Origin: Octopus vulgaris
Lineage: Eukaryota
Assembly: GCA_951406725.2 (NCBI GenBank)
Contig: OX597828.1
Span: 73,222,001-73,286,000, forward strand
DNA: 64,000 bases
Direction of reading: 5' to 3'
The notes under the pieces: model-generated
Seen by the model: only the letters and a program-made list of their open reading frames with translations
Database searches by the model: none
What the model was told of the DNA's origin: nothing
Program-made: the position numbers and the translations under genes
In this document: one piece after another, positions 9,614 to 20,072 of the stretch
How the letters are laid out: each line of letters opens with the position of its first letter
Position numbering within the stretch: the first letter of the stretch is position 1

Positions 9614-10461
9614 ATGTAGTTGTTGCCCTGTGCTAAATTCGCTTTTTATCTTTGAATCTGAACTTCGGCTCGAAAGAGTCGAGGCTATATGTTGCAAAAC
9701 GTTTGTTCGATAAGTGTAACATTTGTACAAAATCACCATTGTATTTTACGAAAAAGAGATATATTGATTTCTAACGAGAAAAGTAAGTCTGATCGAGTAA
9801 ATCGATCTAATACTTGAATGAAACTTTGTTTTATCGAACTTCACGATAAACAATATTTATGTTGTAGTTTCATATTTGTATGACTACAAAATTATTTCGT
9901 TTGTAAATATCAGGTTTATACAGTAAAATATGTGCAAACTATATCTTTGTTGAATGTGAGAGTGATACCTGACATGATCGCAAGACCAGAACATTTTAGG
10001 GAAGGGATTTACCGATGAAACCGGCCTGATACTTGATTGACACTCTGTCATCTACCCGGGATGCAATTTGGCCTTAAGGGGATTTGAACTCAGAATGTAG
10101 AGATAAACTAAATACTGCAATTCATTTGGCACTCAACTATTTCTGTCAATTTACCAAAATGTTGTTAAATATAGTAAGAAACCGTCTGACAATATAATAT
10201 AAAGTTTAATTATTTATAAAGCTATTTAAGTGTATATTCCTGGAATTATTAGTTATGAGTTGGGGATAAGACGTTTGTTTGATTGTTTGAAGAGATATTA
10301 AAAAAAATTTCTGCTGTTCATGTTGTTGTTTTGCTGTTAGCATTTTATGGAATATTTCATCAATTAAAATTTCAAAAGCTTAAGGACAAAAGCACGTAGA
10401 CTTGCCTGCATTGGATCGACCAGGGCTATTCATTGTGAAATTCATTTTGATGAAGCCGTTT

Positions 10462-13400
10462 TCATCGCACTGGAATTTCAACGTCTCTCAGATCAGTTTT
10501 ATCACCATGATTGTCTTCTTTCGCTGTTGAACTCATTAATCTTTGAGAATTCTCAATGGCATCACCAGAATGTGACAATGTGTCAGCATGTTTTTCGTAC
10601 GGGTTCTCGATTTTTCCTTTATTAACACGGACAGCGTTAATTTTTCCTTCTTTGAACTTATGTGAAGAGGGTTGTGACGAAGATCTTCGCGATATCACTT
10701 TGGATGTGAGATCGGTTTTACTCAACCCTAGTGAATTCTGTTCTCCATAATCAGTTCTATTTGTGTCTTTAAAATTATTAATGCTATCACTTTTCATCGG
10801 TAAAGTATATAAAACATTTAACGGCATATGAAGATTTTTTTTAGATAATTTCTTAGAGGGCTTAACTGAATTTGAGGGATTATGGGCATTTGGTAACTCT
10901 ATGACTGGGGACGATGGATCTTGAATTCCTAAATACCGTTTCACTAACATTGTATGGCTGAAGTTCCGTTTATGTAGAGAAATCGTATTAGAAGGTTTTG
11001 CTGCCGTACGTTTAAACTTTTGGCGCCTTTTAGCAGCAAACTTACGATTAGCAGTTAAGTAATTTCTACCTACAATTCGTTTACCAACAAATAAGGGATC
11101 CTCATCTCGTTTATCTGATAACAAGGTATATCGACTCTGGGGATATTTAATTGTTTTACTTACAAAAGAAGGCCCTGGATATCGCTTAATCCCAAGTAAA
11201 AAATTTGACCGCGAACGCGAAATTTTATCTGCAGAAGATTCTTCATTTCTTCTAAAAATAGGTTTATTTCTAGTTACAGATTCTAACTCCCGTTTGTCCT
11301 TAGATACTTGATGATCGACTTTTAGAGAATTTTTGTTGTGTGTAACTAAATTCATAAGGCGCAATTTTCGTTTTCTTACAAGACCAGGATTGTACTTTGA
11401 CTTACCTATAACATGTTGGTAAGGTCTATTTTCAGAATGGGTCCCACTAAACCCTCCTTTACTGAGTAATTCTGTGACGTGCTCACGTTTGCCAACGAAC
11501 AAAGGATTTTTCTCTCGTTTACCAGAAAACATAGCATCTCTCTCTCTTTTACCGACAAACATGGGATCCTCTCGTTTACCGACAAACACAGGATCTTCTC
11601 TTTTACCTATAAACATGGGATCCTCTCTTTTACCGACAAACATAAGATGTTCTCTTTTACCAACAAACATAGGGTTTTCTCTTTTACCCACAAACATAGG
11701 ATCTTCTCTTTTACCAACAAACATAGGATTTTCTCTTTTACCGACAAACATAGGCTCTTCTCTTTTACCTATAAACATGGGATCTTCTCTTTTACCGACA
11801 AACATGGGATCTTCTCTTTTACCGATGAACATGGGATCTTCTCTTTTACCAACAAACATGGGATCTTCTCTTTTACCGACAAACATAGGCTCTTCTCTTT
11901 TACCGATAAACATGGGATTTTCTCTTTTACCTATAAACATGGGATCCTCTCTTTTACCGACAAACATAGGCTCTTCTCTTTTACCTATAAACATGGGATC
12001 TTCTCTTTTACCGACAAACATGGGATCTTCTCTTTTACCGATGAACATGGGATCTTCTCTTTTACCAACAAACATGGGATCTTCTCTTTTACCGACAAAC
12101 ATGGGGTCTTCTCTTTTACCGATGAACATAGGATCCTCTCTTTTACCTACAAACATAGGATCTTCTCTTTTACCGACAAACATGGGATCTTCTCTTTTAC
12201 CAACAAACATGGGATCTTCTCTTTTACCAACAAACATAGGCTCTTCTCTTTTACCAACAAACCTGGGATCTTCTCTTTTACCGACAAACATAGGCTCTTC
12301 TCTTTTACCGATGAACATAGGATCTTCTCTTTTACCTATAAACATGGGATCTTCTCTTTTACCGATAAACATAGGATCTTCTCTTTTACCGACAAACACG
12401 GGATCCTCTCTTTTACCGACAAACATGGGATCTTCTCTTTTACCGACAAACACGGGATCTTCTCCTTTACCGACAAACATAGGCTCTTCTCTTTTACCGA
12501 TGAACATGGGATCTTCTCTTTTACCAACAAACATAGGATCTTCTCTTTTACCTATAAACATGGGATCTTCTCTTTTACCGACAAACATGGGATCTTCTCT
12601 TTTACCGACAAACATGGGATCTTCTCTTTTACCGACAAACATGGGATCTTCTCTTTTACCTATAAACATGGGATCTTCTTTTTTACCGATGAACATTGGA
12701 TCTTCCCTTTTACCAACAAACATGGGATCTTCTTTTTTACCAACGAACATAGGATCTTCTCTTTTGCCAACGAACATAGGATCTTCTCTTTTACCGACAA
12801 ACATAAGATCTCTTTTACCAACGAACATAGGATCTTCTTTTTTACCGACAAACATGGGATCTTCTCTTTTACCTATAAACATAGGATCTTCTCTTTTACC
12901 GACAAACATAGGATCTCTTTTACCAACGAACATAGGATCTTCTTTTTTACCGATAAACATAGGATCTTCTCTTTTACCAACAAACATGGGATCTTCTCTT
13001 TTACCAACAAACATGGGATCTTCTCTTTTACCAACGAACATAGGATCTTCTTTTTTGCCGATGAACATGGGATCTTCTCTTTTACCCACAAACATGGGAT
13101 CCTCTCTTTTACCGACAAACATGGGATCTTCTTTTTTACCGATGAACATAGGATCTTCTCTTTTACCGACAAACATGGGATCTCTTTTACCAACAAACAT
13201 AGGCTCTTCTCTTTTACCGACAAACATGGGGTCTTCTCTTTTACCGATGAACATAGGTTCCTCTCTTTTACCTACAAACATGGGATCTTCTCTTTTACCT
13301 ATAAACATGGGATCTTCTCTTTTACCTATAAACATGGGATCTTCTCTTTTACCGACAAACATGGGATCTTCTCTTTTACCGACAAACATGGGATCTTCTC

Positions 13401-15500
13401 TTTTACCGACAAACATAGGATCTTCTCTTTTACCGACAACCATGGGATCTCTTTTACCGACAAACATGGGGTCTTCTCTTTTACCGATGAACATAGGATC
13501 CTCTCTTTTACCTACAAACATAGGATCTTCTCTTTTACCGACAAACATAGGATCTTCTCTTTTACCAACAAACATAGGATCTTCTCTTTTACCGACAAAC
13601 ATGGGATCTTCTCTCTTACCAACAAACATGGGATCTCTTCTTTTACCGACAAACATCGGATCTTCTCGTTTACCAACAAACATAGGCTCTTTCTCTCGTT
13701 TACCAACAAACATATGACTTTCTCTTTTACCGACAAACATGGGATCTTCCCCTCGTTTACCCACGAACATAGGATCCACCCCTCGTTTGCCAACGAATAC
13801 AGGATCTTCCTCTCGTTTACCGACAAACACTGGATCCTCCTCTCGTCTTCCGATAAACATAGGATCTTCTCGTTTCCTGACAAACATAGGGTTCTTCTCT
13901 CGTTTACCCACAAACATTGGATCGTCTCGTTTACCTACAAACCTAGGATTTCTTTTACCGACAAACATAGGCTCTTTCACCCGTTTACCGATAAACATTG
14001 GATCTTCACGTTTACCAACAATCATAGGCTCTTTCTCTCTTTTACCAACAAACATTGGATCTTCATCACGTTTACCAACAAACATAGGTTCTTTCCCCCG
14101 TTTCCCGACAAACATAGGATCTTCTCGTTTACCGACAAACACAGGATCATCCTCTCGTTTTCCAACAAACATGGGATTTTCCTCACGTTTACCGACAAAC
14201 ATTGGATCCTGCTCTCTTTTACGACCAAATACAGTCTCCCTGGAAAATGGTGCAACGAAAGCTGAGGGAAATGACGCCGGCTTTTGTTTTCCCGTTAAAA
14301 ACGTATCGTTATTTCGTAAAGAACGAAATATTAGATCCGGTTCATGTATATTAGTGTATACAGATCTTGAATTTCGCTTTCTGGGAAATAAGGGATGATC
14401 GTTTTGTCGTTTGCCTGCCGATACAGAATCATAATGAACTCGTTTGCTTATAATAATGGGATCATCTGGTTTGTTTAAAAACGTGTGATCCGGATATTGT
14501 TTTCCTCCAAATAAGGGCTCACCATGGAATGGTTTGCCTGTATATATTACATTATCATCGTATATGGGATCGCCTGGCTTGTTTGATATGTCCTGGTCAA
14601 GATAATCATGTGTAGGTAACTGATTATTATAACCTCTTTTTCCTACAAATAAGGGGTCATCATCTCGTTTGCCTACAAAAAGAGGATCATCATCTCGTTT
14701 GCCTACAAATAAAGGAGTTTCTAGCTTTTGGTCATGATAATTCTGTTTTCTTCTAAATAATGGAACTTGTATACCTGCTAACAAGGGATTTTCCTCCGTA
14801 CGTCGTTTGTTTACAAATAACCGATGGAGTGAATTCTCAACGGAGAGAGGGTATTCACTCCTTTTGCCTACAAACATGGGATCTTCGTCCCTTTTACCTA
14901 CAAACATGGGATCTGGATTTCGTTTACCAACAAAAAAGGGATCTGAATCTCGTTTACCAACAAAAAAGGGGTCTGGATCTCGTTTACCTACAAAAAAGGG
15001 GTCTGAATCTCGTTTGCCTACAAAAAAGGGTTCTGAATGTCGTTTACCTACAAAAAACGGATCTGGGTCTCGTTTACCAACAAAGAAAGGGTCTGGGTCT
15101 CTTTTACCTACAGAAAAAGGGTAAGGATTTCTCTTCCTTATATATAAAGTGTTTGGACCCCTTTTACCAACGAAGATGGGGTCTGGATCCCGTTTACCGA
15201 CAAATAAAGTGTCTGGATCCTTTTTACCTACAAAGAATGGATCTGGAACCCGTCTACCAACAAAAAGGTGGTCTCGACCCCGTTTTCCTACAAAAAAAGG
15301 ATCTTGATCCCTTTTCCCCACAAAAAATGGATCTAGGTCCCGTTTTCCCACAAAAAATGGATCTGGGTCCCGTTTTCCTACAAAAAAAGGATCTGGATCC
15401 CTTTTATCTATAAACATGGGGGCTGGATCTCGTTTATCAACATATAAATGATGTTCGTCGTTCCGATTACCTAACAACATTGAGTCCGGATCCTGTTTAT
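10462..15500 (-). CDS. Giant PXFVamide (Mytilus inhibitory peptide-related) neuropeptide precursor exon
   Basis: Branch-like gctaat followed by actttctttgcag|AT at 15500 (phase 1), in frame with the signal exon (1706 aa product). Contains tandem DPDPFFV-GKR, EDPMFV-GKR and EDPMFI-GKR units with the C-terminal P-x-F-V-amide motif. The ORF itself has no signal peptide. Candidate ATTAAA at 10205-10210. Confidence 0.92.
11490..14220 (-). repeat. Coding minisatellite, mainly 27-bp units (24-30 bp variants) encoding KR-EDPMFVG
   Basis: Plus-strand unit tcttttaccgacaaacatgggatcttc is repeated about 100 times (estimated from length divided by unit size), always in frame. Confidence 0.95.
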
Positions 15501-16816
15501 CTGCAAAGAAAGTGTGGAGAATTTTCGTATTAGCTGATTTCATACCATTACCTTCTTTATATTATCCTTAATTAATCTAGAATATTTCATATTTTTGTTG
15601 ATATTCTTGTAACTAATTATATTCCCAACGTGAAACAGTAACGGAAAAATATTTATATCAACGGATCAGCTTCGACGAATGACAAGGTCTTGGCTATATT
15701 TCTTTTAAGTTCTGCCGCATCACACATTTCATTTTATACTTTCCAGCTTTTCATCGTGTGTTTACAAGTCTTGGTGCTTCGGTGATTTTGGTTGAATCTT
15801 GATATTTGTATCCCAATGCATTATCCACAAAAATTTGAGTAAAATTCTTTGTTAAAAGCATTTTTTCTTAGATCTTTAGCCAGGGAAAAAAGTGGTTTCA
15901 TATGTGCTACTACGTGAAGTATTTAAGCAGAATGCAATAGCTGATTCCCTAATGTAGACTCTGTAACCATTCTAATTGCTATGATGCTATGGACTTAAAG
16001 GCATTAAATCATCTGCGATATTACTTTTGATAAATATATTTGGAATTCCGTGATTATAACTTGTGATATAGTATTGTCTATTACTTTGCACTTACGTTTA
16101 TTGTAGAAAAGAAAATGTTCTTCGCTATAGTTTGAAATGCTTGTCAAGTCGATCTATTATTTTCCCAGTGTTCTTTAGTTATATTTCGAATGAGAAAATT
16201 GTGACAACTATGCCTGTAAACACGAAAAGGATGAGAGATTCCTGCACCTAAGACATCTGTACTAGTATGGTATTTAGGTTCTCCAAATGGATTGTATATT
16301 TGAACATTGCAAGTCATTTGTAAGGAGGCTATCCATTTAAAACAAGGTTTTTTTTTCTTTAAAAGGACAAATGGAGAAAAAATTTGAATAAATTTGAAAT
16401 TGCTATCTTGAGTCGCTGAAACGAATTGTGGAACGAATTTGGATATTGAATCCTATTAGCTAAGAATATATCCTAAGAGCTGGCTGCCAGCAGATTTAAT
16501 TTGATGTTATTGGACATTCCTGAAACATTATTACCATTTGATCCACTCGTATGATGCATTTCAGTTGCACCATTTAACGTTGTTTGGAACGATTGTCACT
16601 TACCATTATTGAAAATTCCCTATAACCTGATATGCCATTTACTGACATTTCTGCCGAAAAAAGGGAGAGCGGTAGTTTACCTCTTCCTCTCTAGATGAAA
16701 TTTTAAATGCTCAGACTAAATTAAATCGCTAGTAATTTTCTGCGAGAAATGTTTTTCCCGCGAGCTTTTCTATCTATATCAGGAATATTAGCGAATCTCT
16801 AGTGTACACACCAATT

Positions 16817-17598
16817 TCACTTACCGATTAATACAAATTGTATACCTTTACGTCTGAAAGTATTCCAAATTTTAAGATCAAGCAGTTTAGCTAAGGTTTC
16901 AGTAGCATTGTGCCAAATTCTCGGGTCCAACATTTCCAAATTATTCTTACCTAAAAATTCCATTGGACGCTTATCAAAGTAATCCAATTTTCTTTTTCCC
17001 AAAAATTCCATGGGGCGCTTTCCTAGGAATTCCATACCTCTTTTTCCAAGGAACTCCATTGGGCGTTTACCTAAAAATTCCATTGATCGTTTTCCAAGAA
17101 ATTCCATTGGTCTTTTCCCTAAGAATTCCATACGCCTTTTTCCCAAGAATTCCATCCGTCTTTTACCCAAGAATTCCATTCTTCTTTTATCATCTAAATC
17201 ATCTGCTCTCTTTCCCAAGAATTCCATAGGACGTTTCCCCAAAAATTCCATAGGGCGTTTACCCAAAAATTCCATCGGTCTTTTTCCTAAGAATTCCATT
17301 GGTCTTTTTCCTAAGAATTCCATCGGTCTTTTGCCAAGGAATTCCATCGGCCGTTTACCAAGAAATTCCATTGGTCTTTTACCGAGAAATTCCATCGGCC
17401 TCTTTTCAAGACCCTCATCTTCGTCATCAGTATAGGCAATGAAAGGATCATTCATTACCGATTCATCTGGTAGCGCTACTTCACCATTATCTTGCGTATG
17501 ACCACTAGGGATGTTCAAATAGGAACTGCCTACAAGTGGCTTCATAACTGTGTCCTTCACTGCGTTTTTCACAGACTCTGAATCAGCGGCATTGTAAT
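16817..17598 (-). CDS. xMEFLamide (EFLamide/TRH-like) neuropeptide precursor exon
   Basis: Acceptor tttctttgtatttctag|AT at 17598 is phase 1 and in frame with the signal exon (287 aa product). An acidic spacer precedes 16 KR-flanked xMEFL-G units (11 PMEFL, 3 RMEFL, 1 SMEFL, 1 GMEFL) and a final PMEFLGK without a dibasic site. Gly-Lys-Arg indicates amidation and convertase cleavage. The ORF-track N-terminus (17680-17599) is intronic. Confidence 0.9.
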
Positions 17599-18093
17599 CT
17601 AGAAATACAAAGAAACACAACAAATCAACACAAGACATCCACACTACACCATAAATACCGGAGGAAACAGCAGCATCCACAGCATCAGCGGCAACAGCAG
17701 CAGCAGAAAGAGCAAAATTAGTAACCAGTCATACAAAACTTAGCAAAACCTTAAACATTCTCTCCTCCATTTTATCTTTCATTCTACATGTCCTCTTTGT
17801 ACGCGGGCGTGCGCATGTGTGCGTGTGTGTGTGTGTTTATGTTTGTAATGTAAATTTGTATATAACAGATTCCTCGAAAATAATCTGACTAAAATGTCCA
17901 GTTAAAACATGGCGACGTAGAAATCAATAACGTGCAGAAATGTTTGTCTGACGATACGGATGTTCATTAGATCTGCTTGAAGCTACGAGTTTGGTTTTCA
18001 GTTGAATGAATTAAATTACTTATATCCAGCCCATGCTACTCAGTACTTTCCTACTTTCCTCCCGTTCGTTTGTATACTTATATTCATGTGTAT

Positions 18094-19874: not shown

Positions 19875-19956
19875 CGATGAGATGCCCATTCTTGACCTGT
19901 CCCCAAACTGAGGCAGATAGAATTACCACAATGTACACAGACAAGTAGATCCTCAT
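19875..19956 (-). CDS. Signal-peptide exon of the neuropeptide precursor gene (MRIYLSVYIVVILSASVWGQVKNGHLI + 1 nt)
   Basis: Minus strand has acceptor ttttcttttattgcag (exon starts 19984), ATG at 19956, 27 codons and a phase-1 donor ATCG|GTATGT at 19875. The peptide has a basic N-region, a hydrophobic core and a VWG|Q cleavage-like site. It is too short for the ORF track. Confidence 0.9.
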
Positions 19957-20072
19957 TTCTAATGTAATTTGCTGCTTGAAGCTTCTGCAATAAAAGAAAA
20001 CAAAGACAAGGTAAGTAAATTCATCAATTTCTCAAGTCTATATATGTATATATATATATTTATGTATGTATG

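Follow-up and report, generated by a model that had tools for sequence, protein, structure and literature searches.

In the oyster Crassostrea gigas, alternative splicing of the single gene LOC105328755, in which exons are skipped, yields two precursors of Mytilus inhibitory peptides (MIP, or PXFVamides) and one of fulicin (PMC8398477), and in the annelid Platynereis the coding sequence for FV peptides is followed by a stop and then by coding sequence for EFLG peptides, for which read-through was proposed (PMC3890597). Insect EFLa is also obtained by alternative splicing onto the start of another precursor (PMC7294237). Here we describe a related gene of Octopus vulgaris, located on the minus strand of a 64,000-nucleotide (nt) stretch of contig OX597828.1 (assembly GCA_951406725.2, positions 73,222,001 to 73,286,000; hereafter the window, in which all positions below are counted). 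Within the window the gene is ordered as a signal-peptide exon, an exon with EFLamide-type repeats (EFL exon) and an exon with PXFVamide-type repeats (FV exon), and our analysis of assembled RNA contigs indicates that the one signal-peptide exon is probably spliced to one of the two peptide exons, with an EFL-only and an FV-only precursor as the main outputs.

The octopus gene compared with described systems

Judged by its predicted peptides, the gene is the cephalopod form of the known fulicin/EFLamide and PXFVamide gene. The FV exon carries many PxF[V/I]-Gly units between basic sites, as a PXFVamide precursor does (111 PxF[V/I]G motifs and 118 predicted amidated peptides, EDPMFVamide being the most frequent with 38), and in BLASTP its product matched, at the level of motifs, the FV portion of a Mytilus coruscus gene model. 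The EFL exon holds 17 xMEFLG units coding for PMEFLamide and variants of it, and thus shows the E-[L/F]-[L/F/V] core with an amidation signal, a core given as the signature of fulicin/EFLamide (PMC8398477). Both peptide families are placed under a shared gene and signal peptide, as the signal-peptide exon is joined to the EFL exon in all four RNA runs described below and an FV acceptor of the same phase follows 1450 nt downstream.

In having one gene with a shared start and separate PxFV/Iamide and fulicin (EFL-core) precursors, the locus resembles that of the oyster (PMC8398477), and in combining FV- and EFL-type peptides in one gene it resembles the FVa/EFLGa genes of Platynereis and, as cited in the same paper, Capitella (PMC3890597). 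The order of the parts differs, however. The fulicin coding sequence of the oyster lies out of frame within the MIP message's 3' untranslated region, so MIP comes first (PMC8398477), whereas in the octopus window EFL lies upstream and is internal, FV would be the exon that is skipped, and FV coding extends over 5 kb with its 118 predicted peptides. In the annelid, FV is likewise first, EFLG lies past the stop and the peptides are EFLGamide (PMC3890597), whereas the octopus would produce EFLamide by splicing. Either-or splicing of the two peptide families is already known in oyster and worms; what differs here is the opposite exon order.

Among cephalopods, transcript 288058 of Idiosepius notoides joins a similar signal peptide to a similar EFL region and is a direct orthologue, the transcript ending within the repeats, before the tail and donor discussed below (PMC6425005 supplement), and Sepia PMEFLamide is reported second-hand in PMC5736919 as a mature peptide in cuttlefish haemolymph.

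The start codon of the octopus gene lies at 19956, and the signal-peptide exon contributes 82 nt of coding sequence (19956-19875; 27 codons plus 1 nt), including a hydrophobic leader that a simple scan marks as a predicted signal peptide, up to a phase-1 donor (TCG/GTATGT) after 19875. The EFL exon is entered through a phase-1 acceptor at 17598, and the acceptor ahead of 15500 consists of a pyrimidine tract and GCAG. Computed open joins comprise a signal peptide-FV product of 1706 amino acids (aa), EFL read-through through the downstream tail (287 aa), and EFL-FV fusions of 1922 aa (16951 to 15500) and 1964 aa (16825 to 15500). A scan for further FV or EFL exons found none within the window. 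Downstream of the FV coding part lie poly(A)-like hexamers (ATTAAA at 10210, AATAAA from 8795).

RNA contigs at the EFL and FV exons

Assembled contigs from 4 of 24 listed runs (X1, X4, X7 and X14, representing four studies and two organism labels) were aligned over 14200-17800, which covers 14200-15500 of the FV exon. Joints, breaks and differences reported here are those among the contig rows listed, the threshold for a contig to bridge a junction was 31 letters, and stretches without contig cover (16499-16861 in X14; 15531-15651 and 16257-16377 in X7) were not counted as evidence. In all four runs the loose contig ends at 17599 match 19876-19905, which shows that signal-peptide and EFL exons are spliced together and hence that the runs contain spliced RNA; in X4 and X7 the contigs extend at least 255 letters past this joint. 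The EFL exon is covered by one contig per run, reaching from 17599 to 16949 in X1 and to 16941 in X4, X7 and X14. The latter three, from three studies and two organism labels, arrive at 16941 with two differences and then continue with 18 identical loose letters, and the X1 contig branches at 16949. The loose letters look like a CA repeat that starts ~10 nt past the joint. Within the window the 18 letters have no exact match, the four matches with one mismatch all being ordinary microsatellites, and the 28-letter form that counts from 16951 has no match with five or fewer mismatches. Together, these contigs strongly indicate that the 16951 donor is used and is joined to an off-window exon starting with GT. 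The EFL exon is thus an internal exon.

Entry into the FV exon was followed in the same runs. In X14, alignment of the contig at the start of FV reaches 15501 and leaves 27 letters over, just as many as are loose at 17599. In a de Bruijn simulation of alternative transcript mixtures with 31-letter words, this pattern, in which 27 letters are loose at 17599 and 27 at 15501, was exactly that of a mixture of EFL-only and FV-only transcripts, the pair of 27-letter ends arising because the EFL and FV exons share their first two letters. The pattern of X1, with 29 letters loose at 17599, a break at 16949 and a contig from 16978, corresponded to a mixture of EFL-only and unspliced RNA. In X4, the FV-start contig ends its alignment at 15501 with 2 letters over, and since the alignment stops there, the letter at -2 differs from the A that the 16951 donor would supply. 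From X14, with support from X4 as a second run, we infer a direct splice from the signal-peptide exon to 15500.

Several points weigh against this account of EFL exit and FV entry. The contig extension past 16951 amounts to 28 letters, under the bridge threshold, and a search of the window did not turn up the partner exon. Eight of the first 10 letters past the joint equal the start of the intron, which is not expected for an unrelated exon (a 6/7 letter agreement past the joint has a post-hoc chance of ~0.1-2%). The 27 loose letters of X14 at 15501 are identified by number alone, X1 shows no spliced entry into FV, and in X4 and X7 the EFL contigs pass unbranched into the signal-peptide exon even though FV has contig cover. 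Moreover, the FV contig of X7 begins exactly at 15501, which fits an added unspliced or an added fused path. The contigs stem from 4 of the 24 runs, none of the 24 being recorded as RNA and no tissue being recorded, and 57 contig pieces and 4 loose ends lie outside the contig rows listed.

Under the either-or splicing that we favour, one route would join the signal peptide to the EFL exon, leave it at 16951, skip the 5-kb FV exon and continue into the off-window exon. That exon probably lies more than 16.9 kb downstream and would be mostly untranslated because the CA-type repeat starts ~10 nt past the joint, and the last EFL unit would end in PMEFL-Gly plus whatever the distant exon adds. The other route would join the signal peptide to 15500 and skip EFL, yielding the 1706-aa PXFVamide precursor. 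As a conjecture, the choice between the two acceptors may depend on cell type, and recognition of the very long FV exon may be limited to its use as the last exon, coupled with a poly(A) site of its own, with EFL-including cells bypassing FV. Since the reading frame does not enforce exclusion, a rare fused by-product may exist.

Table 1. Features of the octopus gene, in the order of transcription (positions within the window)
Feature	Position	Strand	Basis and remarks
Shared signal-peptide exon	19875..19983	-	Sequence scan; 5' end inferred from acceptor at 19984
EFL exon	16951..17598	-	648 nt, phase 1 at both ends; sequence and one covering contig per run
5' splice site GTAAGA (TTAG/GTAAGA)	16945..16950	-	Gly-Lys codons of last EFL peptide; use strongly indicated, partner outside window
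Open 44-codon tail ending Gly-Lys-stop	16817..16950	-	Low-depth or unspliced contigs only
EFL-FV intron	15501..16950	-	1450 nt; ATTAAA at 16500, AATAAA at 16102
Second donor-like site GTAAGT (ATCG/GTAAGT after 16825)	16819..16824	-	Sequence; no sign of use in the contigs
FV exon, coding part	10462..15500	-	5039 nt, phase-1 acceptor; sequence
Donor-like site ATAG/GTAAGT	11400..11405	-	Best score in region, phase 1, just past FV repeats

Within the FV exon, at 11543-14222 on the minus strand, ~98 tandem 27-nt copies code mostly for EDPMFV/EDPMFI-amide, with a copy number that may depend on the assembly, and the predicted 1706-aa precursor with its EDPMFV/I peptides, which have acidic N-terminal residues, far exceeds the bivalve and gastropod PXFV precursors compared. 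All four runs also share differences from the genome at 15274, 15304 and 15920, and three of them have a further one at 15305, each being T>C on the plus strand (A>G in the transcript); at 14900 one run shows the opposite change. Cephalopods are known for adenosine-to-inosine (A-to-I) editing, and the A>G sites could represent such editing, alleles or repeat mis-assembly.

Donor sites and alternative readings of the transcripts

A preliminary description of this DNA had pointed out that the last PMEFLG unit lacks its KR exactly where the donor after 16951 sits, that a second donor follows after 16825 and that both share phase 1 with the 15500 acceptor, and had proposed from this a frame-preserving EFL cassette with three outputs: EFL only, FV only and a fused EFL-PXFV precursor. 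The sequence bears out the sites and the frame. KR follows 16 of the 17 EFLG units, the 17th being interrupted by the 16951 donor, both donors are in phase 1 and the fusion via 16951 is open over 1922 aa. Of the cassette, the internal position of the EFL exon and the use of its donor stood, but the partner is off-window sequence and not 15500; likewise EFL-only and FV-only outputs are retained, the latter from the X14 pattern, whereas the fused output had no joint among those listed for the four runs.

The phase match carries little weight of its own. Both donors are made of the codons GGT AAG (Gly-Lys, the amidation signal), and because any GGT AAG Gly-Lys pair yields a phase-1 donor, the agreement is not beyond chance. 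Under a rough weight matrix the 16951 and 16825 donors come out high, being equalled or exceeded by 16 and 17 of 3500 minus-strand GT sites, and three sites in 10400-17800 (11405, 16603 and 14522) score higher, one of which, 14522, is crossed without a break by contigs in all four runs. Donor score and phase thus reveal neither use nor partner. For 16825, no joint or contig break is listed, and X1 record 6 and X7 record 26 cross the site.

GGTAAG accounts for 2 of 18 Gly-Lys pairs in the EFL frame, namely the two donors, and for 2 of 126 in the FV exon (13620 and 11406). Downstream of the donor-like site at 11405, 314 codons remain open (chance ~1e-9), so this part is coding in at least one isoform and the donor would be at most optional; if it were used, the distant last exon of the EFL message could also be joined by FV, which would make EFL and FV true mutually exclusive cassettes. 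As a separate observation on the FV exon, Gly-Lys is written GGT AAA 102 times and GGT AAG twice (2/104), compared to AAG at 15 of 61 other Lys codons (Fisher p 7e-6). This scarcity possibly reflects avoidance of cryptic donors or just repeat homogenisation, the repeats not being independent, and selection is not claimed.

With the frame open and the 16951 donor active, the fused precursor could in principle be a substantial and regulated product, making up for example at least a tenth of FV messages in some tissue. A second entry path is permitted by the X7 contig that starts at 15501, and Platynereis, where some of the FVa neurons are stained for EFLGa as well (PMC3890597), provides a precedent for co-production in one cell. 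However, no joint from 16951 or from 16825 to 15500 is listed in the contigs of any of the four runs, although contigs lose minority junctions; the four joints listed all fall inside the FV repeats. A simulated fused path produced a break at 16951 and an alignment to 15502, which was seen in none of the four runs among the rows listed, and the EFL contigs are unbroken at 16951. In addition, the entry letters of X14 and X4 agree with the signal-peptide exon but do not match the 16951 donor, the phase match is explained by the Gly-Lys codons, and a search for longer relatives returned one protein, modelled from a snail gene with the order reversed, which is weak evidence. That the 16951 donor mainly leads to the fused form is therefore contradicted by the contigs and not supported, and a substantial fused output appears improbable. 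Since real minority junctions were demonstrably dropped in X4 and X7, the contigs could have dropped a fused junction too, and a rare or minor fused form is possible. Such a mega-precursor, not found in the contigs examined, would be a curiosity and not a new principle.

A second, near-identical EFL copy, for example downstream of FV, might instead yield the main EFL message, in which case 16949 would mark a duplication boundary rather than a splice. This reading would account for the agreement of 8 of 10 letters between contig and genome after 16951, and it is in line with the failure to find the off-window letters in the window and with an ancestral order of FV then EFL. In contrast, the X1 contig equals the window over 16949-17599 and no difference is listed over 16951-17599 for the other three runs, organism B also having none listed over the EFL exon though it differs at 6 places in the FV contig. 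The departure coincides with a strong canonical donor, and the EFL exon of the window has its own acceptor and a transcribed upstream intron (X7 record 28), making a second copy an unlikely source of the message.

The tail KNNLEML...IGK had been suspected in the preliminary description to be intron read-through, and the contigs agree that it is mostly intron seen in unspliced RNA. Its 44 codons would stay open by chance with P ~0.06 under the local intron composition, which is not unusual, and one X1 contig (15365-16978) bridges the EFL-FV intron unspliced, fragments of it occurring in the other three runs. That EFL is mainly a terminal exon, read through the tail into a 287-aa product and ending at 16500 or 16102, is very unlikely, because the poly(A)-like hexamers, the X1 read-through contig and an open Gly-Lys-stop tail like that of gastropod precursors are set against EFL contigs that in 3 of 4 runs depart from the genome at the donor, an X1 contig that does not end but continues unspliced into the FV exon, and tail/EFL depths of 0.044, 0.001, 0.005 and 0 in the four runs, a hint only since contig depth cannot rank gene parts. 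The Gly-Lys-stop itself resembles that of the gastropod EFL-type precursors P0001, P0003 and P0022, and may be a relic of a former terminal exon.

Exon order and its meaning for cephalopod neuropeptide genes

The Pfam family TRH (thyrotropin-releasing hormone) gave no match to the EFL exon at E 0.1, and the Atlas returned a pro-TRH cluster at 0.82, which is a lead only, besides general neuropeptide precursors under 0.9. Other Pfam matches to the EFL and FV exons were discarded as repeat artefacts, as no stretch passes by itself. Annelid EFLGamide, with its extra Gly (EFLGG-KR), was rejected since the octopus units read EFLG-KR, and cuttlefish FLGamide (orcokinin B-like) was set apart by its description, the FLGamide and PYY ends described in PMC9410093 being different. 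Neither a named cephalopod relative nor an EFL-then-FV protein was found among 29, 1, 1 and the best 150 of 407 protein matches. The Rfam search found no family, and no selector/docking-type pairing was found among the 25 longest of 1267 inverted repeats, which are microsatellites.

A metagenome scan yielded one locus from 211 pattern matches, a mussel-like bivalve locus (L001). This locus and the Mytilus coruscus gene model have in common with the window their MEFLGKR repeats (61% identity over 93 aa to P0038), a phase-1 acceptor leading into the EFL exon and an N-terminal spacer that is alike. In L001 the FV exon comes first, followed by a 1.28-kb intron (313-1592) and an EFL exon that is terminal and closes with Gly-stop. 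There the donor of FV is in phase 2 and meets the phase-1 EFL acceptor; because of this phase-2 donor the FV-EFL join runs into a stop at once and gives no in-frame fusion, in agreement with the out-of-frame fulicin coding in the 3' untranslated region in the oyster. The gene models of Mytilus coruscus (CAC5401040.1), Physella acuta and Capitella also have FV then EFL, their in-frame fusions being predictions. Both motif types occur in 4 of 196 proteins, always with FV before EFL (P0030 and P0098 are of doubtful orthology).

Two of the proteins compared showed further combinations. In P0098, a precursor of 533 aa, PPSFVG units are interspersed with RDFVG units within one frame, a mix of PxFV-like and DFV-like peptides, and the nemertean model XP_074644156.1 of Tubulanus polymorphus (P0007) joins REFLG/xDFLG amidated repeats to a prokineticin domain.

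The window thus departs from the bivalve and annelid layout of FV followed by terminal EFL, its order being signal peptide, EFL and FV with EFL internal. This test covers the window, and a further EFL remnant past its end is possible. In the open-access literature, with most subscription journals outside the scope, we found no description of an EFL-then-FV layout. The exon order of the octopus gene is quite probably reversed relative to other lophotrochozoans.

How this order came about can be put forward only tentatively. The distant exon might be a remnant of the ancestral terminal EFL exon, which we regard as possible though doubtful; the 8 of 10 alike letters past the joint would follow from such a remnant, as they would from a second EFL copy. 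An explicit version, for which we see little likelihood, holds that a duplicate of the EFL exon arose upstream of FV and is spliced to the decayed old copy, and that some neurons co-produce both peptide families from the 1922-aa precursor. In that case the AG/GT inside the last Leu-Gly-Lys unit would have been spliced to the matching AG/GT of the old copy, so that an intron would have been born from a peptide repeat. If true, the swap would make EFL and FV frame-compatible, unlike in the bivalve locus, and TRH-type and MIP-type peptides would be co-produced.

For the either-or splicing that we favour, the first consequence would be a correction of gene models: TRH-type PMEFLamide precursors, EFLGa having been stated in PMC8398477 to activate a TRH-receptor orthologue, and very large PXFVamide precursors would both be made, as alternatives, from a single cephalopod gene, and the C-terminal tail, although it looks annotated, would not be a real protein end. 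Cephalopod expression studies that count at the level of genes or use the label 'PRQFV-amide' may accordingly mix two signals. The ancient pairing of both peptide families under one signal peptide would have outlived the rearrangement of its exons, which suggests that a shared promoter or start matters more than exon layout.

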